In this document: piece by piece, positions 19,826 to 30,434 of the stretch
Numbering within the stretch: position 1 is the first letter of the stretch
Layout of the letters: each line of letters opens with the position of its first letter
Assembly (NCBI RefSeq): GCF_000015585.1
Contig: NC_008789.1
Coordinates: 780,001-812,000, forward strand
DNA from: Halorhodospira halophila SL1
GTDB lineage: Bacteria > Pseudomonadota > Gammaproteobacteria > Nitrococcales > Halorhodospiraceae
Direction of reading: 5' to 3'
DNA: 32,000 bases
The notes under the pieces: model-generated
What the model was told of the DNA's origin: nothing
Databases searched by the model: none
The model's input: only the letters and a program-made list of their open reading frames with translations
Made by a program: the position numbers and the translations under genes

Positions 19826-20548
19826 TTAAAAGCGCACGGCGTCGAAGGAGACCCCCAGGTAGAACTCGTCGTCCTCCCCGGAGGACATCACCCGGCCGTA
19901 GGCCAGATCCAGCTGGACCAGGTCGTCGAGCATGCTGCGGCGCAGGCCGAAGGCGCCCCGGGCATCCTCATCGCTGTCGGTATCCCCGGTGGCCTGCAGG
20001 ATCACGTCCCAGCGCTCGGTGAAGCGCCAGTCCAGGCCCAGCCCCCAGATGCCGTCGGTGTCGTCGTCCTGGCGGTTGTGGCTCACGCCGAGGTTGGCGT
20101 GGACCGTGGTGCGCTGGCCCCAGTCCACGGTCAGCGGCACCAGCAGGAAGTGGTCGCGGCGGCGGTCATCGCTGATGTCGTAGTCCAGGCCCGCGGCCAG
20201 GCCGAGTCCGTAACCGTCGCGGTGCCGGTCGCGCCACAGCCACAGGCCTTCGACGTCGAGGAAGGCGTTGGCATCGGCCCCCTCGGTGCCTTGGGTACCC
20301 AGCCCCACGGTGGTCTGCCAGTCACCGGTACCGCGGGTGGTCAGGGCACCGAAGGTGCCGACACGGTCGCCTTCGCTGCGATCCACCTCCTGGTGCCAGA
20401 AGTCCACGGTGCCGCTGCGCCGGTCGATCAGCTCGGCCTCGGTGATCTCGTAGGCGTCGCCGGGCAGCGGCCCGCTCACCGCCGCGCCACTGGCCAGCGC
20501 GCCCCCCAGGCCGGCGGCCGCCGCCATCCACCCACCGTAACGTTGCAT
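19826..20548 (-). CDS. Putative small outer-membrane beta-barrel protein (family not recognised)
   Basis: This is the last 240 codons of the 823-aa track ORF. The start is MQRYGGWMAAAAGLGGALASGAAVSG, with an AGGAGG SD about 5 nt upstream. Alternating amphipathic strands are present, and the C-terminus is YLGVSFDAVRF (terminal aromatic). The rest of the 823-aa ORF is antisense to metG. Confidence 0.6.
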   Translation of the reverse strand: MQRYGGWMAAAAGLGGALASGAAVSGPLPGDAYEITEAELIDRRSGTVDFWHQEVDRSEGDRVGTFGALTTRGTGDWQTTVGLGTQGTEGADANAFLDVEGLWLWRDRHRDGYGLGLAAGLDYDISDDRRRDHFLLVPLTVDWGQRTTVHANLGVSHNRQDDDTDGIWGLGLDWRFTERWDVILQATGDTDSDEDARGAFGLRRSMLDDLVQLDLAYGRVMSSGEDDEFYLGVSFDAVRF

Positions 20549-20620
20549 ACTGCCTCCTATTGATCTTGCGGGATCTGGCATAATGCGCGGTTTCCCGCAC
20601 AGCAAACCGAATCCGGAGAT

Positions 20621-22660
20621 ATGGCACGCCGCATCCTCGTCACCAGCGCCCTGCCCTACGCCAACGGCCCGATCCACCTGGGCCACCTGGTCGAATACAT
20701 CCAGACCGATATCTGGGCACGCTTCCAGCGGCTGCGCGGCAACGAATGCTACTACGTCTGTGCCGATGACGCCCACGGTACGCCGATCATGCTGAAGGCG
20801 CGCGAGCGCGGCGTCGACCCGGAGCAGCTCATCGAGGAGATGGCCGCCAGCCACCAGGCCGACTTCGCCGATTTTCTCATCGGCTTCGACCGCTACCACT
20901 CCACCCACTCGGCGGAGAACCGCCACTTCGCCGAGCTGATCTACCAGCGCCTGGAGGCCGGCGGCCACATCGAGCGACACACCATCGAGCAGCTCTACGA
21001 CCCCGGCGAGGGCATGTTCCTCCCCGATCGCTACATCAAGGGCACCTGCCCGCGCTGCGCGGCCCCCGATCAGTACGGCGACTCCTGCGAGGCGTGCGGC
21101 GCCACCTACACCCCGGCGGAGCTCCAGGATCCGGTCTCGGTGATCTCCGGCGAGCGCCCGGAGGTGCGGGAGAGCGAACACTTCTTCTTCCGGCTGCAGG
21201 ACTTCGAGGCACTGCTGCGTCAGTGGGCCAGCGCCGAGCACCTGCAGCCGGAGATCATCAACAAGCTCAACGAGTGGTTCGAGGCCGGGCTGCGCGACTG
21301 GGACATCTCCCGCGACGCGCCCTACTTCGGCTTCCGCATCCCGGGCACCGAGGACAAGTACTTCTATGTCTGGCTGGATGCGCCCATCGGCTACATGGCC
21401 AGCTTCCGCCGCCTGGCCGAGGAGCGGGGCATCGACTTCGACGCCTTCTGGGATGCCGGGCGCGCCGAGGAGACCGAGCTCTACCACTTCATCGGCAAGG
21501 ACATCGCCTACTTCCACACGCTGTTCTGGCCGGCGATGCTCCACGGCGCCGGCTACCGCACCCCGACGGCGGTCTACTGCCACGGCTTTCTGACCGTCAA
21601 CGGGCAGAAGATGTCCAAGTCCCGGGGAACGTTCATCACCGCGCGCAGCTATCTCGATCACCTGGATCCGGAGTACCTGCGCTACTACACGGCGGCCAAG
21701 CTCTCGGACTCGGTGGAGGACATCGACCTCTCCTTCGACGACTTCGTCCAGCGGGTCAACTCCGACGTGGTGGGCAAGCTGGTGAACATCGCCAGCCGCT
21801 GCGCCGGGTTCATCACCAAGCGCTTCGACGGCCGCCTGGCACCCCGGCTCAGCGCCCCGGAGCTGTTCCGGACGTTCACCGCCAGCGCCGAGCGCATCGC
21901 CGAGCTCTACGAGCAGCGCGAGTACGCCCGGGCGGTGCGCGAGATCATGCACCTGGCCGACCAGGCGAATCAGTACATCGACGCCGAGAAGCCGTGGGAG
22001 CGGATCAAGGACCCCGAGCAGGCGCGGGCGGTGCAGGAGATCTGCACCATGGGGCTGAACCTGTTCCGGGTGCTGATCATCTACATCAAGCCGATCATGC
22101 CGCGGCTGGCAGAAGACGCCGAGGCGTTCCTGGCCATCGGGCCACTCGCCTGGGCAGATGTGCAGGCGCCGCTGCTCGATCACGGGATCAACAAGTTCAA
22201 ACCGCTGAAGACGCGGATCGACCCGCAACAAGTGGAGGCCGTCGTGGACGCATCGAAGGAGACGCTGGCGCAATCCGAATCCAGTGAGCCGGCGCAAGGG
22301 CCGAGCGGCCGCCTGGCCGAGGATCCGATCGATGAGCCGATCACCATCGACGATTTCGCCAAGCTCGACCTGCGCGTCGCCGAGGTGAGGGTGGCCGAGG
22401 CGGTGGAGGGCGCGGACAAGCTGCTGCGCCTGGAGCTGGATCTCGGCGGTGAGACGCGCCAGGTCTTCGCCGGTGTGCGCCAGGCCTACAGCCCGGAGCA
22501 GTTGGTCGGCAAGCGGGTGGTCTGTGTGGCCAACCTGAAGCCGCGCAAGATGCGTTTCGGGACGTCGGAGGGGATGGTCCTCTGCGCTGGTCCCGGCGGT
22601 GAGGATCTGTGGGTGGTCGGCCCCGACGAGGGGGCGGAGCCGGGAATGCGGGTGAAGTAA
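20621..22660 (+). CDS. metG: Methionyl-tRNA synthetase with a C-terminal tRNA-binding (Trbp111/EMAP-like) domain
   Basis: The HIGH-type motif [10 protein letters not shown], the KMSKS motif, the zinc knuckle [18 protein letters not shown] and the C-terminal [28 protein letters not shown] are all present. Confidence 0.97.
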
Positions 22661-22971: not shown

Positions 22972-24276
22972 CTACCGGCGCCGCTGCTGCTCCCGCGGCA
23001 CCTCACGGAGCTCCACCTCGAACTTCCGCTCCTCACCGTCGCGCAGGACCGTCAGCGTCACCGCATCCCCCGCCCGACGGGCGAAGACCAACCGCTGCAA
23101 CTCCCGCGGCTCCGACACCGCCTCACCGTTCACGTGGGTGATGACATCCCCGTCGGCCGGCATGGCACGCCCTTCGACACTCACCTCGAACGACGCCCCC
23201 TGCAGCCCCGCCTCCTCGGCCGGACTGCCCGACTCGACATCCACCACCATCACCCCGCGCTCCGGGAGATTCAGCCGCTCGCGGACCCCCTCCGGATAGC
23301 CCTGCAGACCGGCCACCATCACCCCCAGACGGGCCCGGGAGGTCAGATCCGTCAGACCGCCCTCCTCCATCTCGTCCAGGCTCTCCTGGAGCAGATTGCT
23401 GGGCACGGCAAAGCCCACGCCCACCGAGCCGCCCCGGCCGGTCAGCCCGCCGCCGCCCGGCACGATGGCGGTGTTCACACCGATCACCTCTCCGGCGGAG
23501 TTGAGCAGCGGCCCGCCGGAGTTGCCCGGATTGATCGCCGCATCGGTCTGGATCATGGGGATCTCGATCTGCCCGATCCCCGGCAGATCCCGGCCGACAC
23601 CGGAGACAATCCCCGTGGTCACCGTAGAGCTCAGCCCGAAGGGGTTGCCGATGGCGATGGTCTTCTGGCCCACCAGGGTCTGATCCGAGTCGGCCAGCGG
23701 CAGCGGCTCGGCGCCGTCCGGGATGCTGTCCGGATCCTCGGGCTTGAGCAGGGCCAGGTCGTAGAGCGCGTTGGCGCCCACCACTCGGGCCGGCACCGCT
23801 TCGTGCTCGGCGAAGCTGAGCTTCAGGGAAGCGCCCTCGCGCAGATCCACGCTCTCCTCCTCCAGGGCGTTGCGGATGACGTGGTAGTTGGTGACGATAT
23901 GCCCCGCATCATCGACCAGAAAGCCACTCCCGGCGCCCTGGCGGCGGGGCGAGTCCTCGCGGGGCTGCTGCCGGCGCTCGAAGAACTCGCGGAATTCCCG
24001 CGGGAGCATCCCTTCGGGGATGCGGTCGAAGGGGTCGACCCGCTCGCCGCGGACCTCGACCTCGATGGCCACCACCGAGGGGCCGTAGCGCTGGAAGATC
24101 TCCACCGTGTTGCGCTCATCCGGCTGGAGGTGCTCCAGGTCGTCGGCCAGCGCCGGGGTGGCCACCAGGCCGATCAGAGCGGTCGCCAGCGCCGCCACCA
24201 CCATCCGCGGCGCGCGTCGATGCTGCATCGCGTGTGCTACCGTCATAAGGCTTTCTACCTGTGGGTTGTTCATCAA
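22972..24276 (-). CDS. HtrA/DegP-family periplasmic serine endoprotease with a single PDZ domain
   Basis: The catalytic triad contexts are IVTNYHVI (His), YDLALLK (Asp) and GNSGGPLLN (Ser). One PDZ domain is present (VVDVESGSPAEEAGLQ...GDVITHVNGEAV). The signal peptide is MQHRRAPRMVVAALATALIGLVATPALA, so the true start may be the ATG at 24228. Confidence 0.9.
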   Translation of the reverse strand: MMNNPQVESLMTVAHAMQHRRAPRMVVAALATALIGLVATPALADDLEHLQPDERNTVEIFQRYGPSVVAIEVEVRGERVDPFDRIPEGMLPREFREFFERRQQPREDSPRRQGAGSGFLVDDAGHIVTNYHVIRNALEEESVDLREGASLKLSFAEHEAVPARVVGANALYDLALLKPEDPDSIPDGAEPLPLADSDQTLVGQKTIAIGNPFGLSSTVTTGIVSGVGRDLPGIGQIEIPMIQTDAAINPGNSGGPLLNSAGEVIGVNTAIVPGGGGLTGRGGSVGVGFAVPSNLLQESLDEMEEGGLTDLTSRARLGVMVAGLQGYPEGVRERLNLPERGVMVVDVESGSPAEEAGLQGASFEVSVEGRAMPADGDVITHVNGEAVSEPRELQRLVFARRAGDAVTLTVLRDGEERKFEVELREVPREQQRRR

Positions 24277-24351
24277 GTAGTGGACAACAAGGCTAGGGTG
24301 TTAAGTTCACCCTGTTCGTAACGGATCAAGCCACCGATTTCCAACACGGGG

Positions 24352-25440
24352 ATGGCGATGGATCTCCTGTTATTGGCCGTCGCGGCCGTGCTGGTCAACA
24401 ACTTCGTCCTCACCCAGTTCCTCGGGTTGTGCCCGTTTCTGGGAGTCTCGCGCAAGGTCGAGACGGCGGCGGGCATGGCGGCCGCCACCGCCTTCGTCCT
24501 CACCCTGGCCTCGGTGCTGAGCTATCTGGCCTTCACCTACATCCTGGTGCCGCTGGACGCCGAGTACCTGCGCACGCCCACGTTCATCCTGATCATCGCC
24601 ATCGCCGTGCAGCTGACCGAGATGGCGGTGCGCTTCACCAGCCCCATGCTCCAGCAGGTGCTCGGCCTCTACCTGCCGCTGATCACCACCAACTGCGCGG
24701 TGCTCGGCGTCGCCCTGCTCAACCTGCGCGGCGACCATGACCTGATCGCCTCGGCGGTCTACGGCGCCGCGGCGGCCGCCGGCTTCGGCCTGGTGCTGGT
24801 GATCTTCGCCGCCCTGCGCGAGCGGTTGGAGAGCGCCGAGGTGCCCCGCGCCTTCCGCGGTGCGCCCATCGCCCTGGTCAGCGCCGGGATCCTCTCCATG
24901 GGCTTCATGGGCTTCGCCGGCCTGGCCCAGGCCGGCGAGCGGGAGTTGGCCACCGACCGCGAGGACATGGTGGAAGTCGAGGTCACCACCCTGACCCTGG
25001 AAGAGGGCGGCGCCCCGGCGCCGGTGATCCTCCTCGGCGAACCGGACAGCGAGCAGATGGTGCCGATCTTCATCGGCCCCAGCGAGGCGCAGGCCATCCA
25101 CGACGCCCTGCACGGCGTCGAGCCGCCGCGGCCGATGACCCACGACCTGTTCGGCAACGTGCTGCGCGCCACCGGCTACACCCTGCAGGCCGTCTACATC
25201 GACGCCATCGTCGACGGCGCCTACGTCGCCGCCCTGGCCCTGGCACCCGAGGACGGTGGCGAGGTGCGCTACATCGACAGCCGCTCCAGCGACGCCATCG
25301 CCCTGGCGCTGCGCGCCGAGGCTACCATCTACGCCGCCCCGGAGGTCCTGGAGGCGGCCCAGGAGCGGGAGCAGCAGCGCCCGCGGGACGAGTCCCTGCG
25401 CATGACCCGGCTGGATCTGGTGCCGGGTCCGACGACGTGA
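24352..25440 (+). CDS. rnfA: Rnf complex subunit A fused in frame to a C-terminal BFN/DUF151 (bifunctional nuclease family) domain
   Basis: Residues 1-192 match RnfA/RsxA end to end ([19 protein letters not shown]...[16 protein letters not shown]...GFMGFAGL). There is no stop, and residues 206-336 carry the BFN hallmarks [43 protein letters not shown] and [26 protein letters not shown]. Confidence 0.85.
24967..25359 (+). other. BFN/DUF151 domain-coding segment inside the rnfA ORF (begins at an in-frame ATG)
   Basis: [15 protein letters not shown]... resembles the native N-terminus of stand-alone BFN proteins. It lies 13 codons after the end of RnfA homology. GC3 stays high in this frame. Confidence 0.7.
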
Positions 25441-25471
25441 GGCCACCACCGATCATGTTACCCTGTATCGT

Positions 25472-27517
25472 ATGTTCAGCGCGGTCCTGACCCTCACAGC
25501 CATCGCCGGTCTCTGCGGTGTCGGTCTCGGCGCCGCCGGGCGCCGTCTGGCCGCGCAGCGCGATCCGGTGGTCGGGCACATCGACGAGCTGCTGCCCCAG
25601 ACCCAGTGCGGCCAGTGCGGGTACCCGGGCTGCCGGCCGTACGCCGAGGCCGTGGCTGCCGGCGAGGCCGCCACCAACCTCTGCACCCCCGGCGGCAACG
25701 CCACCGCCCGGGCCATCGCCGACCTGCTCCAGGTGGATCCGGAGCCGGTGGCCGATGACAGCACCGGGCCGGCCGTGGCGTTCATCGACGAGAGCCAGTG
25801 CATCGGCTGCACGCGCTGCCTGCCGGCCTGCCCGGTGGATGCCATCGTCGGCGCCCAGCGCCAGGTGCACACCGTGCTCGCCGACGAGTGCACCGGCTGC
25901 CGCCTGTGCGTCGACGCCTGCCCCATGGACTGCATCACCATGCAGCCGGTGGAGCCGCCGCTGAACGCCCGCATCCGCCCGCTGCCGACGCCGCAGTCGA
26001 CCACCGCCCGGCCGGAACAGCGGCCCGGACCGCTGCGCCACCAGCAGGTGCAGCCCCGGCGGCGCGGCGTGGCGGTGGCGGACGCCAAGGACTACTCCCG
26101 CAACGGCCCGCTGCGCAGCCTGGCGCTGCCGGCGCAGCTGGTGCTGCCGCTGCTCGATCACACCGGGGCCGAGGCCCCGGCCACCGTGGCCGTAGGCGAA
26201 CACGTCCGGCGCGGCACGCGGATCACCGAAGGGCGCAACGGGGTCCCCCTGCACGCCCCCACCTCCGGGGTGGTCAGCGCCATCGAGCGCCGGCCCATCG
26301 TCCACCCGGCCGGCGGCACCGCGCCGTGCCTGATCGTCGAGAGTGACGGCGCCGACTGCCGCGAGACCCCCATGCCGCCCATCGAGGCGCCCCTGCAGGC
26401 CGACCCCGAGGCCCTGCTGCGGCGCATCGGCGAGGCCGGCGTACGCGGCATGGGCGGCGCCGCCTTCCCCTCGGCGCTGAAGCTCGCCGACGGCGCCCGC
26501 AGCGGCGTCGACACCCTGGTGGTCAACGGCGTCGAGTGCGACACCTACCTCACCTGTGACGAGACCCTGCTGCGCATGCGCGCCGCGGCCATCATCGACG
26601 GCGCGCGCATCGCCGCCCGGGCCTGCGGCGCCGAGCGCATCCTGGTGGCGGTCAAGAACTCCGCCCCCGAGGCCGCGGCAGCGGCCGAGGCCGCCATCGA
26701 GGCCAGCGAGGCCGACATCCAGGTGGTGCGCGTCGGCGGCGACTATCCCGCGGGCAACGAGCGGCACATCGTCTACCCGACCACCGGGCGCACGGTCCCC
26801 GCCGGTGCCCGGCCACCGGCGGTGGGGGTGGTCTGCCAGAACGTCTCCACCCTCGACGCCATCCACCGCGCCGTCCATTACGGCGAGCCGTCGGTGGAGC
26901 GGCTGGTCACGGTCACCGGCGGCGGTATCGCCGAGCCGGGCAACTACTGGGTGCGGGTCGGCACCCCGCTGAACGCCCTGATCGGCCAGGCCGGCACGCC
27001 CGGCTGCCGGACCATCGTCGGCGGCGGCATCATGGGCACCCCGGTCACCGACCGGCAGGTGCCGCTGACCCACGGCATGAACGGGATCGTGGTCGAGTCC
27101 GCCGACGAGGCGCCGCTGTTCGAGCAGCCGTGCATCAGCTGCGGGCGCTGCGCCGAGGTCTGCCCCGAGGGCCTGCAGCCGTTCGAGATGGCCCGGCGCA
27201 TCCGCGCCGGCGTCGATGTCGGCGAGGCCGCCGAGCACATCGACCTCGACCCGATGCGCTGCACCGGCTGCTCGAGCTGCGAACTGGTCTGCCCCAGCTC
27301 CATTCCCCTGGCCGGCATCACCGGCCACGCCCGGGACGCCGCCCGCGCCCGCCTGCGTGAGCGCGAGCAGGCCGAGCGGGCCCGGCAACGCCACGAGGCC
27401 CGGCAGGCCCGCGAGGCGCGCCGCCAGCGCGAGAAGGAAGAGGCACGCCGGCGCAAGCGCGAGGCCATGGCCGCCCAGGCCGAACAGAACCGCCCGAGCG
27501 AGACCACGGAGGGTTGA
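25472..27517 (+). CDS. rnfC: Rnf complex subunits B and C encoded as one ORF (RnfB module about aa 1-160, Pro/Arg/Gln-rich linker, RnfC module about aa 206-681)
   Basis: The RnfB module has a TM anchor, the [26 protein letters not shown] cluster, and [12 protein letters not shown] plus [12 protein letters not shown]. The RnfC module has [71 protein letters not shown] and an Arg/Glu-rich tail. No in-frame stop lies between the modules. Confidence 0.85.
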
Positions 27518-28491
27518 GCTTGGCGGCACCCACAACGCCCAGGATCATGGGATGGGTCCTGCTCGCCCTCCTGCCGGGGGCGGGCGTGCTGGTGTGGCTC
27601 TTCGGCGTCGGCGTGCTCCTGAACATCACTGCCGCGCTGACCGCCGGCGTCGCCGCCGAGGCCGCGGCGCTGCGCCTGCGCGGCCGCCCGGTGGCCCCGG
27701 CCCTGACCGACGGCAGCACGCCCCTGGCGGCCCTGATCATCGGCATCGCCCTGCCGCCCCTGCTGCCCTTCTGGATCCCCGCCCTGGCCGGCGCCCTGGC
27801 CGTGCTGCTGGGCAAGCAGGTCTACGGCGGGCTGGGGCAGAACATCTTCAATCCGGCCATGGTCGGCTACCTGGCGGTGGTCCTCGCCTTCCCCCAGGCG
27901 GTGAGCCTGTGGCCGGCCCCGGAGACCGGCGTGGGGGCCGCGGTACCCGCCACCGAGGCCCTGCACTACTTCCTCACCGGCGCCCTGCCGCCCATTGCCG
28001 ACGCCATGACCCACGCCACGCCGCTGGACCGGCTGGCCACCGAGGGCTTCGCCGCCCTGCCCGGCGATGGCGGCCTGTGGGGGCAGACCCAGGCCGCCGG
28101 CGCCTGGCTGTGGCTCGGCGCCGCCTTGCTGCTCGGCGGCGCCGGCCTGCTGGCCCTGCGCATCGTCGACTGGCGCCTGCCGGTCGGGGTGCTGGTCGGC
28201 ACCGCCGCCACCGCGGCGCTGCTGCAGCTCGGTGACGGCGCCCCGGTCCTCTTTCACCTGCTCTCCGGGGCAACCCTGCTGGTGGCCTTCTTCATCGCCA
28301 CGGACCCGGTCAGCGCCCCGCGGGAGCCCACGGCGCGGCTGATCTACGCCGCACTGATCGGCGTGGTGGCGCTGGTCATCCGCGAACTCGGCGGCCACCC
28401 GGACGGCTTCGCCTTCGCCGTGCTGATGCTCAACGCCACCGCGCCGCTGCTCGACTACGTGGTACGCCGCAGCGCCGGGGAGGCCGCATGA
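27514..28491 (+). CDS. rnfD: Rnf complex subunit D
   Basis: [24 protein letters not shown] (the flavinylation-site region; E. coli has SQATPLD) and [21 protein letters not shown] are present. The TTG start overlaps the upstream stop (TTGA). An alternative ATG lies at 27547. Confidence 0.9.
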
Positions 28492-29162
28492 CCCTACCGG
28501 TGAGCCTGCGCGCCGGGGGCATCCTCGCCCTGTTCGTGGGCGTCGGGCTGGCCGCCGTGGCCCTGGTCCACGAGCAGACCCGGGAGCGGATCGCCACCGC
28601 CGAACGGCAGGTGGTCCTTGATCGTCTGGCCGCCGTCCTGCCCGAGGGCCACGACAACGCCCCCGAGGACCAGGTCTACCAGCGCCCCACCCCACTGGAT
28701 CACGACACCCCGTTGCGCATCTACCCGGCCTACGCCGGCGACGAGTACCTGGGCGCGGCGGTGGAGGTGGAGACCCCGGAGGGCTACGCCGGCACCATCC
28801 GCCTGCTCGTCGGCCTCGACGCCGACGGCCGGGTCCTGGGCGTGCGCACCGTGGCCCACCGCGAGACGCCGGGGCTGGGCGACGCCATCGAGACCGCACG
28901 CAGCGACTGGATGTACGGCTTCGACGACCGGACCCTGGGCGACCCGCCGGAGGACGACTGGCGCGTGCGCCAGGACGGCGGGCAGTTCGACGGCATCACC
29001 GGGGCGACCATCACCGCCCGGGCGGTGGTCGACGCCGTGCGCGAGGTGCTGATCGACTACACCGCCGAGCCGGAGGCCTACCGCGGTGTCGACCAGGCCG
29101 AGGACGGCACCGCCGTCGACCCCGAGGCCGACGGCCACAGTGACGAGGGCCCCACCGGATGA
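28488..29162 (+). CDS. rnfG: Rnf complex subunit G (FMN-binding)
   Basis: It has an N-terminal TM segment, ETPGLGD, and FDGITGATITARAV (the covalent-FMN threonine motif). It has an ATGA overlap with rnfD and an acidic C-terminal tail. Confidence 0.9.
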   Translation: MTLPVSLRAGGILALFVGVGLAAVALVHEQTRERIATAERQVVLDRLAAVLPEGHDNAPEDQVYQRPTPLDHDTPLRIYPAYAGDEYLGAAVEVETPEGYAGTIRLLVGLDADGRVLGVRTVAHRETPGLGDAIETARSDWMYGFDDRTLGDPPEDDWRVRQDGGQFDGITGATITARAVVDAVREVLIDYTAEPEAYRGVDQAEDGTAVDPEADGHSDEGPTG

Positions 29163-29803
29163 GCGAGACCCCCACCCCACGCAGCATCTTCCGCGACGGC
29201 CTGTGGGGCAACAACGCCGCCCTGGTCCAGCTGCTCGGCCTTTGCCCACTGCTGGCGGTAACCACCACCGCCGTGGCCGGGCTCGGCCTGGGCATCGCCA
29301 CCCTGCTGGTGGTCACCGCCTCCAGCGTGGTGGTCTCGCTGATCCGCAACCTCGTCCCCCAGGACGTGCGCATCCCGGTCTTTATCCTGGTCATCGCCGC
29401 CTTCGTCACCATCGTCGAGCTGGTGGTGGCGGCGTGGCTCCACGACCTCTACCGCACCCTGGGCCTGTTCCTGCCCCTGATCGTCACCAACTGCGCCATC
29501 CTCGCCCGGGCCGAGGCGTTCGCCTCGCGCCAGCCGGTGGGCCCGGCGGCGCTGGACGGCATCGCCACCGGCACCGGCTTCGCCGCCGTGCTCATCGTCC
29601 TCGGCGCCCTGCGCGAGCTCATCGGCCGCGGCACCCTGCTCGACGGCGCCGAACAGCTCTTCGGTCCGATCGCCGCGAACTGGACGCTCGAGCTGGTCGA
29701 CGGCGACGTCTTCCTGCTGGCCATCCTGCCGCCGGGGGCGTTCATCGGCCTGGCCCTGCTGCTGGCGATCAAGAACCGCATCGACGACCGCCATGGACGC
29801 TGA
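29159..29803 (+). CDS. rnfE: Rnf complex subunit E
   Basis: LWGNNAALVQLLGLCPLLAVTTT and LPLIVTNCAILARAEAFA are present. It has an ATGA overlap with rnfG. Confidence 0.92.
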   Translation: MSETPTPRSIFRDGLWGNNAALVQLLGLCPLLAVTTTAVAGLGLGIATLLVVTASSVVVSLIRNLVPQDVRIPVFILVIAAFVTIVELVVAAWLHDLYRTLGLFLPLIVTNCAILARAEAFASRQPVGPAALDGIATGTGFAAVLIVLGALRELIGRGTLLDGAEQLFGPIAANWTLELVDGDVFLLAILPPGAFIGLALLLAIKNRIDDRHGR

Positions 29804-30434
29804 GCAGCGCCACGAGCTCTACCGGCGGCTGAGAGAGGCGCTGCCCGAGCCGGAGACCGAGCTCCTCTACGAGACCCCCTACGAGCTGCTGGTGGCGGTC
29901 TCGCTCTCGGCGCAGAGCACCGATGAGAGCGTCAACCGCGCCACCCGGCAGCTCTTCCCGGTGGCCAACACCCCCGAGGCGATGCTCGCCCTCGGCGAGG
30001 CCGGCCTCAAGCCGTACATCCAGCACATCGGGCTCTACAACAACAAGGCGCGCAACATCATCGCCGCCAGCCAGCAGCTCATCGAGCACCACGACGGCCA
30101 GGTGCCCCGCGACCGCCCGGCCCTGGAGGCCCTGCCCGGGGTCGGGCGCAAGACGGCCAACGTCATCCTCAACGTCGCCTTCGGCGAGCCGACCATCGCC
30201 GTGGATACGCACATCTTCCGCGTCGCCAACCGCACCGGGCTGGCCCCGGGGAAGAACGTCCGCGAGGTGGAGGCGGGGCTGGAGGCGGTGACGCCGGAGC
30301 CGTTCCGACTCCACGCCCACCACTGGCTGATCCTGCACGGGCGCTACACCTGCACCGCCCGCCGCCCGCGCTGCGGGGCGTGCGTGATCGCTGATCTGTG
30401 CGCCTTCCCGGAGAAAGACCCGGAACGGACCTAA
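29793..30434 (+). CDS. nth: Endonuclease III
   Basis: The HhH motif LPGVGRKTANVILNVAFG and the Fe-S cluster motif CTARRPRCGACVIADLC are present. nth follows rnfE, as in E. coli rsxABCDGE-nth. Confidence 0.95.
   Translation: MDAEQRHELYRRLREALPEPETELLYETPYELLVAVSLSAQSTDESVNRATRQLFPVANTPEAMLALGEAGLKPYIQHIGLYNNKARNIIAASQQLIEHHDGQVPRDRPALEALPGVGRKTANVILNVAFGEPTIAVDTHIFRVANRTGLAPGKNVREVEAGLEAVTPEPFRLHAHHWLILHGRYTCTARRPRCGACVIADLCAFPEKDPERT

Follow-up and report, generated by a model that had tools for sequence, protein, structure and literature searches.

An RnfA subunit continued in frame by a BFN/DUF151 domain of the secreted type in Halorhodospira halophila SL1, with a predicted periplasmic location

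Why does the gene for the ion-pump subunit RnfA run on into a domain of the BFN/DUF151 ("bifunctional nuclease") family, and on which side of the membrane would such a domain reside? The question is raised by a locus in a 32,000-nucleotide stretch of the Halorhodospira halophila SL1 genome (contig NC_008789.1, positions 780,001 to 812,000; hereafter the window), where a single open frame of 362 codons, 24352..25440 on the forward strand, is free of internal stops. Homologues and the GenBank entry begin at the second ATG, 24358 (MDLLLL), and the exact 360-aa product is found as GenBank ABM61501.1 and UniProt A1WUY9 from the same strain. In a preliminary description, made from the DNA letters alone, the frame was read as RnfA fused to a complete BFN domain, which is borne out by the full matches of this one frame to both the RsxA equivalog and PF02577. 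The architecture is real, rare and apparently undescribed. The reading favoured here, to which a probability of about three in four can be given, is that of a genuine rnfA-BFN fusion, in which a BFN domain of the secreted type stands behind the sixth transmembrane (TM) helix of RnfA, TM6, as its export signal, and is located in the periplasm, most likely as a tethered accessory.

The N-terminal part of the protein is a full-length RnfA. It matches the Pfam Rnf-Nqr family at aa 7-191 (E 1.3e-53), TIGR01943 with 258 bits against a cut-off of 229, and the NCBIfam RsxA equivalog NF003481 with 278 bits against a cut-off of 240, with aa 4-193 aligned to model positions 3-192 of 193. Since the RsxA model is covered up to its penultimate position, the RnfA homology stops where a normal RnfA stops, near aa 193 as the preliminary description had placed it, and about 168 residues remain. 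Six TM helices are seen both in the hydropathy profile and in the AlphaFold2 (AF2) model, the closest Protein Data Bank (PDB) matches of the module are 9eri_A, 7zc6_A and 8ahx_A, and C27 (LGLCPF) and C115 (TTNCAV) are both present in near-invariant columns; the conserved cysteine pair is the contribution of RnfA to the [2Fe-2S] site at the RnfA/E interface and is located in two broken inner helices (PMC12174285). The full-length 193-aa core, the six TM helices, both cysteines and the first position in the operon are shared with canonical RnfA/RsxA (NF003481, TIGR01943; 7ZC6, 8AHX, 9ERI). In contrast, canonical RnfA stops within 1-2 residues of TM6 (model length 193), whereas the SL1 protein adds an independently folding domain of about 168 residues, for which no comparable appendage is found in any of the solved or described Rnf/Nqr complexes compared.

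The added domain is a BFN domain by sequence as well as by predicted structure. The BFN_dom model PF02577 matches aa 226-338 with an E-value of 1.4e-33 and 115.5 bits against a cut-off of 27, covering model positions 1-109 of 112, and a sequence match to TM0160 (1sj5/1vjl) extends over aa 207-336 (E 4e-14). The AF2 model of aa 190-362 has a mean predicted local distance difference test score (pLDDT) of 88.4 and a predicted template modelling score (pTM) of 0.83, and a Foldseek comparison of the BFN model with the PDB retrieves only TM0160 (1vjl/1sj5; E 2e-12, target-normalised template modelling score 0.84-0.87), so that profile search and structure prediction, both suggested in the preliminary description, agree on the fold. 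An alignment of 95 BFN sequences has 12 invariant columns, namely P, A, I, R-P-x-T-H and R-x-S-D-x-x-A-x-A, all of which are kept in the fused domain, and the two hallmark blocks that had first drawn attention to it are therefore present with every invariant position. Residues 194-362 hold 31 D+E against 12 K+R, no Cys and, as had been stated for the linker, no TM segment in the hydropathy profile. Behind the BFN domain only about 24 residues remain, and Pfam detects no PDZ domain in the 362-aa protein.

The ancestry of the module is indicated by its closest relatives. A search with the BFN part alone yields mostly stand-alone cytoplasmic proteins of about 160 aa, while the nearest unfused BFNs (46-54% identity) are proteins of 273-295 aa composed of an N-terminal hydrophobic signal, BFN and a C-terminal PDZ domain (P0122; loci L009-L011). 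A search seeded with such a BFN-PDZ protein reveals a large family in Halomonas, Billgrantia, Litchfieldella, Alcanivorax, related genera and metagenome-assembled genomes (MAGs) from soda lakes (proteins P0391-P0510; loci L009-L011, L017-L020 and L023), with a typical length of about 285-295 aa and a signal-like N-terminus in 116 of the 120 members listed. In databases these proteins are labelled "bifunctional nuclease domain-containing" or "PDZ domain-containing protein". Neighbour joining of 65 BFN domains gives a tree that unites the fused ones in a monophyletic group (bootstrap 95%/92%), which forms a clade with the secreted BFN-PDZ proteins at 95% bootstrap, or 81% without the linker columns, apart from the cytoplasmic BFNs. 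As judged from this tree, the fused clade is the sister of the secreted BFN-PDZ clade, and the preliminary view of a normally cytoplasmic domain finds no support for a domain from a clade with Sec-type signal peptides.

The junction itself tells the same origin. The predicted mature ends of the secreted BFN-PDZ proteins read ..AQA|RELAVDxDEMVEVEIAT.., and the fusion linker matches the mature RELAVDxDEMVEVE end, a motif which is present in all fused orthologues and reads AQAEERELAVEPEDMVAVEV in strains other than SL1. The stretch homologous to the nearest unfused relatives starts 10-12 residues ahead of M206, right behind the last helix of RnfA. The in-frame ATG at 24967 that encodes M206 is indeed present, but it was mistaken for the original BFN start, because the homology starts upstream of it; the corresponding position in the secreted clade is an internal M or L and aligns with the start Met only of distant cytoplasmic BFNs. 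A separate Sec signal peptide is absent from the fused protein, which has RnfA TM6 followed by AQA in its place. By these alignments, the module in rnfA is the mature part of a secreted BFN, minus its signal peptide and minus its PDZ domain. The mature end RELAVxxEDMVEVE, the motif PIFIG (with F for the W of cytoplasmic BFNs) and a predicted extracytoplasmic location are common to the fusion and the secreted BFN-PDZ proteins of Halomonadaceae and Alcanivoracaceae; however, the latter are stand-alone genes with a cleavable-looking Sec signal and a PDZ domain, whereas the fusion has RnfA TM6 and a short acidic tail instead. The motif DE(S/P)LRMT within this otherwise variable tail is kept in the four full-length fused orthologues and absent from BFN-PDZ and cytoplasmic BFNs. 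A conserved gene neighbourhood was sought around the stand-alone BFN-PDZ genes and none was found, nor was any paper found that mentions the secreted BFN-PDZ family. Other BFNs with N-terminal hydrophobic anchors are P0162, P0171, P0182 and P0190, two of which carry a twin-arginine-like KRREF before the hydrophobic stretch, and BFNs that are extracytoplasmic or anchored in the membrane may have had more than one origin.

The side of the membrane on which the domain resides is predicted from several observations. First, loops 1, 3 and 5 of the RnfA module contain six K+R, against one in the N-terminus and loops 2 and 4 taken together, from which the positive-inside rule predicts an N-out/C-out RnfA with BFN on the periplasmic face. 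Next, the natural RnfA-RnfB fusions P0351 and P0114 have the RnfB TM helix and a Lys-rich stretch between the RnfA C-terminus and the cytoplasmic Fe-S domain, which by analogy supports an outside RnfA C-terminus independently of the charge count. Finally, reporter fusions in E. coli and V. cholerae reportedly also place the RnfA C-terminus outside. The periplasmic placement assumed in the preliminary description is thus what the charge count and the RnfA-RnfB fusions predict. The topological paradox that it seemed to entail does not arise, since the nearest clade of the domain is secreted and a periplasmic BFN is to be expected. In the AF2 models the TM6 helix ends at aa 193, the first BFN strand begins at aa 207 and the confidence is high from about aa 200, and as modelled the domain would lie within roughly 7-13 residues of the membrane on its periplasmic face. 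End-to-end joining of polypeptides of the operon is likewise known from RnfA-RnfB, RnfE-RnfA and RnfB-RnfC fusions; these join subunits of one complex, whereas rnfA-BFN adds a foreign domain of unrelated function.

How the domain would reach the periplasm is suggested by TM6, which has the n-h-c layout of a signal peptide, with a RAFRG n-region, a hydrophobic core of about 20 residues and a G-L-A-Q-A end. Running from the cytoplasm to the periplasm, TM6 would replace the lost signal peptide of the secreted BFN and drive the Sec/YidC-dependent export of the acidic, Cys-free domain. RnfG is located on the periplasmic side of Rnf (PMC12174285; bioRxiv 10.1101/2024.06.21.599731), and the exported BFN would sit on the same face of the complex. 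Once there, it would most likely remain tethered, with release by signal peptidase I at AQA|G as the alternative. The bond in question (24933/24934; A192-Q193-A194|G195), which has Gly at -5, agrees with the -3/-1 rule of signal peptidase I and could be a candidate site for this enzyme, but tethering is considered more likely than release.

A polyprotein is accordingly the most serious of the other explanations, possible if somewhat doubtful. It holds that TM6 and AQA act as an internal cleavable signal from which signal peptidase I frees a soluble periplasmic BFN of about 18 kDa, able to dimerise; in this case rnfA would additionally provide the export leader of an otherwise independent periplasmic protein and ensure its co-expression. 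The n-h-c layout, the Gly at -5 and the small residues at -3 and -1 are in line with this, as are the secreted relatives, for which cleavage is predicted at the corresponding bond (..AQA|RELAV), and the A-x-A after TM6, which is invariant across all Halorhodospira RnfA sequences, fused and unfused. However, the hydrophobic core, at about 20 residues, is longer than usual in cleavable signals and has the length expected of a signal anchor. Dimerisation, known from the BFN homologues TM0160 (in the crystal) and Cor (PMC3870250), would be easier for a released form, while TM6 is packed in the RnfA/E dimer of the solved Rnf complexes and the site may be inaccessible (PMC12174285). In addition, GLAxA also occurs in unfused, short-tailed RnfA, so that the motif need not serve cleavage.

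A precedent for such processing is the cytochrome b-c1 precursor FbcH (fbcH) of Bradyrhizobium japonicum, which is processed at an internal signal. A polytopic membrane protein followed by a periplasmic domain, a signal-like last helix and A-x-A are common to both proteins; in FbcH, however, the processing is demonstrated and the halves are partners in one enzyme, whereas in rnfA-BFN processing is hypothetical.

What a tethered BFN might do can be approached through its relatives. The name "bifunctional nuclease" derives from plant BBD proteins with nuclease activity in vitro (PMC7249048), and plant UVR-DUF151 proteins have been trapped on ClpC1 (PMC8889267). Mycobacterium tuberculosis Cor (Rv1829), the only studied bacterial BFN member, is a DUF151-only dimer that confers carbon monoxide (CO) resistance and has no DNase or RNase activity (PMC3870250). 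Fold and invariant motifs are common to the fused domain and to these cytoplasmic or plastidial BFNs (TM0160 1VJL/1SJ5, Cor Rv1829, plant BBD/UVR-DUF151), but the latter are soluble, dimeric proteins of about 160 aa, often with a DFG-type tail or a UVR motif, and none is tied to Rnf or to the periplasm. Since the family-invariant cleft residues are intact, the fused BFN probably retains the ancestral biochemical activity of periplasmic BFN proteins. By analogy, this activity would be protein or ligand binding rather than nucleic-acid hydrolysis, because Cor is devoid of nuclease activity and BFN is accompanied by a peptide-binding PDZ domain in the sister family; nuclease activity of the fused BFN is doubtful. 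A "DUF151" match in the fitness compendium of Price et al. proved false, the entry being in fact DUF1513, and no paper was found that mentions RnfA together with BFN. Quite tentatively, and with the odds against it, rnfA-BFN can be pictured as a polyprotein or a permanently tethered accessory, in which the last helix of a pump subunit exports a periplasmic DUF151 domain of the family to which Cor belongs, and this domain acts beside the mobile flavoprotein RnfG in protecting, regulating or assembling the pump.

Were this so, it would matter for a widespread fold the roles of which are disputed between nuclease, CO resistance and Clp adaptor. It would give BFN/DUF151 its first functional context outside the cytoplasm, and one in which it is not a nuclease; the signal-bearing BFN-PDZ clade and its RnfA offshoot would together argue that at least this branch works extracytoplasmically, where DNA or RNA processing is unlikely. 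The Rnf complex would be a concrete physical partner for BFN, and BFN in turn a natural C-terminal reporter of RnfA topology and the first accessory domain known from the periplasmic side of the module in which RnfA and RnfE translocate ions. The effect is limited to a few Halorhodospira lineages, and the domain is dispensable in close relatives.

The distribution of the fusion is indeed narrow. PF02508 and PF02577 are combined in only three 90%-identity clusters of 5.8 billion in a word-indexed search, all three from Halorhodospira or Ectothiorhodospiraceae, and an exhaustive phmmer search of 1.84e9 representatives adds only P0265 as RnfA+BFN among the best 150 matches; its library consists of 50%-identity representatives only, under which fused proteins could be hidden where the representative itself is unfused. 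The architecture is rare, and no paper describing it was found. A search with the BFN protein alone did not return the fused P0001-3 and apparently misses BFN within much longer proteins. A genome scan gave five loci, one of them fused, and a metagenome scan gave generic BFNs, none with a multi-TM partner among the matches listed.

Among the close relatives without BFN are H. neutriphila, with an RnfA of 209 aa, and lineages with an RnfA of 213, 225 and 226 aa. The preliminary description had explained the fusion by a lost rnfA stop or by a BFN gene captured in the interval from rnfA to rnfB, and had suggested a synteny search for such a gene; no separate BFN gene was found between rnfA and rnfB(C) in relatives, where rnfA adjoins rnfBC, and a tblastn search of the unfused loci L001 and L007 gave no remnant of BFN, so that neither origin is upheld. 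In a protein tree of RnfBC the fused lineages are not monophyletic, and the unfused 226-aa lineage lies nearer to SL1 than the fused L015 does. Such branching requires at least one loss or one lateral replacement of BFN, which makes the domain accessory to Rnf rather than one of its core parts, and the patchy distribution among close relatives likewise suggests a dispensable accessory role. The order in which the fused lineages branch also differs between the RnfBC and BFN trees (compared for the window, L004, L013, L015 and L021), L004 being nearer to SL1 than L015 on RnfBC, and L015 nearer than L004 on BFN; recombination within the operon or unequal rates could underlie this conflict.

The BFN module sits inside a hypervariable RnfA tail. 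In Halorhodospira, RnfA, whether fused or unfused, has GLA(Q/H/E)A instead of the canonical C-terminal ..GLVKL, and 16-33 aa behind it form a variable periplasmic tail, which usually closes with a ..VLPYIIC-like stretch overlapping the rnfBC start codon (compared in proteins P0004, P0005, P0006, P0512 and P0515 and loci L001, L007, L021 and L022). The tail of the unfused P0005 starts with GLAHATEREEPGK.. and resembles GLAHATERELIGE.. of the fused fragment P0265, a likeness which may be the scar of a BFN loss.

The fusion is kept over considerable divergence. The uninterrupted frame recurs in independent H. halophila isolates (L013/L014) and in three lineages known from MAGs or metagenomes, namely L004-6 (377 aa), L015/16 (354 aa) and L008 (partial), and P0265 is a more divergent fused fragment with 55-56% identity in its BFN part. 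At least five diverged Halorhodospira lineages thereby keep the fusion intact, and neither a stop nor a frameshift has entered it at synonymous divergences (dS) of up to about 1. The four full-length orthologues have no indels in the linker and only whole-codon indels elsewhere. The ratio of nonsynonymous to synonymous divergence (dN/dS), estimated by the Nei-Gojobori method (NG86) at dS 0.2-1.0, amounts to 0.04-0.09 in RnfA, 0.13-0.37 in the linker and 0.28-0.42 in BFN, values which show purifying selection on both halves, though a looser one on BFN.

These data bear on the idea that BFN is a passenger, a functionless, lineage-specific in-frame insertion tolerated in the variable periplasmic tail of RnfA and now being lost, which must be rated unlikely. 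The patchy occurrence, with unfused lineages (209, 213, 225 and 226 aa) interleaved with fused ones on the RnfBC tree, the variability of the region around it and its weaker constraint compared with RnfA are all as such an insertion would have it. A functionless sequence is nevertheless hard to reconcile with a BFN dN/dS well under 1 over dS up to about 1, with the retention of all family-invariant residues under whole-codon indels only, or with the persistence of the domain in at least five lineages, one of them at 55-56% identity.

Database annotation gives a different picture of the locus. GenBank names the 360-aa protein only "electron transport complex, RnfABCDGE type, A subunit", while in RefSeq the same frame appears as a "bifunctional nuclease family protein" with a length of 157 aa (M206; WP_276569370.1), 177 aa (M186) or 180 aa (M183). 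As these three starts, around 24900..24970, differ and none has a stop upstream, they are pipeline decisions, and the RefSeq split of BFN is probably an annotation artefact which, together with the GenBank label, hides the fusion from architecture-based searches. At L013/L014 no RnfA product is listed in the 660-nt gap upstream of the BFN entry.

Taken literally, the RefSeq entries would describe two genes, with BFN made mainly from an internal start at M206 (or M183/M186) as a cytoplasmic protein and the read-through fusion as incidental, which is quite improbable. Apart from the separate 157-, 177- and 180-aa proteins in RefSeq, the alignment of M206 with the start Met of many cytoplasmic BFNs and a GAGGA ahead of ATG 24967 in all orthologues could be cited for it. 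However, with no rnfA stop before 25438 ribosomes that complete RnfA continue into BFN and the fusion is an unavoidable product, the three RefSeq starts contradict one another, conservation extends upstream of M206 over residues that are homologous to the mature N-terminus of secreted proteins, and the domain itself falls in the secreted clade. An internal Shine-Dalgarno at GAGGA was considered and rejected, as the spacing of 1-2 nt from the ATG is too short and the sequence is set by conserved E-[DE] codons that occur in the secreted relatives as well; neither a promoter-like nor a terminator-like site was found between the RnfA and BFN modules. A sequencing or assembly artefact, that is, a stop or frameshift missed between rnfA and a separate BFN gene, has a negligible probability, since nothing was found in its favour, common as long spurious open reading frames (ORFs) are in a genome of about 68% G+C, and the uninterrupted frame is present in at least five independent assemblies, shared by the finished genome, independent isolates and several metagenome assemblies despite many synonymous differences.

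While the fusion of rnfA to an exported, tethered BFN domain thus remains the preferred reading, several points weigh against it. Close relatives manage without the domain, its dN/dS of about 0.3-0.4 is far more relaxed than that of RnfA, and RefSeq models BFN as a separate protein of 157, 177 or 180 aa. The full-length AF2 model, which is of low confidence (pLDDT 69, pTM 0.47), leaves the RnfA-BFN interface undefined, and the dimeric state of the homologues TM0160 and Cor is poorly met by a single tethered copy per complex. The topology is a prediction that draws on the positive-inside rule, on analogy and on the reported reporter fusions, and the function proposed for BFN is conjectural.

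Table 1. Coordinates, in the window, of the rnfA-BFN gene, its parts and the genes that follow it.
Feature	Coordinates	Strand	Remarks
rnfA-BFN fusion coding sequence	24358..25440	+	360 aa; 362 aa from ATG 24352; stop TGA 25438-25440
RnfA module, aa 3-194	24358..24933	+	RsxA equivalog, PDB matches, hydropathy
TM6 of RnfA	24862..24933	+	preceded by RAFRG, ends A192-Q193-A194
Linker, aa 195-206 (12 residues)	24934..24969	+	alignments with secreted BFN-PDZ proteins
BFN/DUF151 fold, about aa 200-344	24949..25383	+	PF02577 aa 226-338 = 25027..25365
Acidic C-terminal tail	25384..25437	+	low model confidence; motif DE(S/P)LRMT; no PDZ
rnfB-rnfC fusion gene	25472..27517	+	681 aa; start 31 nt past the rnfA-BFN stop codon
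rnfD	27514..28491	+	
rnfG	28488..29162	+	
rnfE	29159..29803	+	
nth	29793..30434	+	

The gene heads an operon in the order rnfA-BFN, rnfBC, rnfD, rnfG, rnfE and nth, in which neighbouring genes from rnfD to nth overlap at their ends. The downstream gene first taken for rnfB is instead an rnfB-rnfC fusion by its Pfam domains, which comprise in order an N-terminal TM segment, FeS, 2x[4Fe-4S] (Fer4 dicluster), RnfC_N, Complex1_51K, SLBB and a second dicluster of 2x[4Fe-4S]. With rnfBC beside rnfA-BFN, two unusual fusions thus occur in one Rnf complex. A fused rnfBC gene (679-693 aa) directly follows rnfA at every Halorhodospira locus examined, with or without BFN. Divergent from rnfA, 22972..24276 on the reverse strand encodes a DegP/HtrA-like periplasmic serine protease (Trypsin_2 + PDZ); this pairing is kept at all Halorhodospira loci irrespective of BFN and is therefore no peculiarity of the fused ones.

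Opposite the real genes there are also very long ORFs, antisense or overlapping (359-823 aa), such as 24370..25449, 25322..27535 and 19826..22297, all on the reverse strand, which is typical of a high-G+C genome (about 68% G+C), and they are not likely to be genes. The sole terminator-like hairpin of the region, 24348..24367 on the forward strand, has a 6-bp stem and overlaps both candidate rnfA starts; it is probably a chance match, although it could influence the choice between the two starts.

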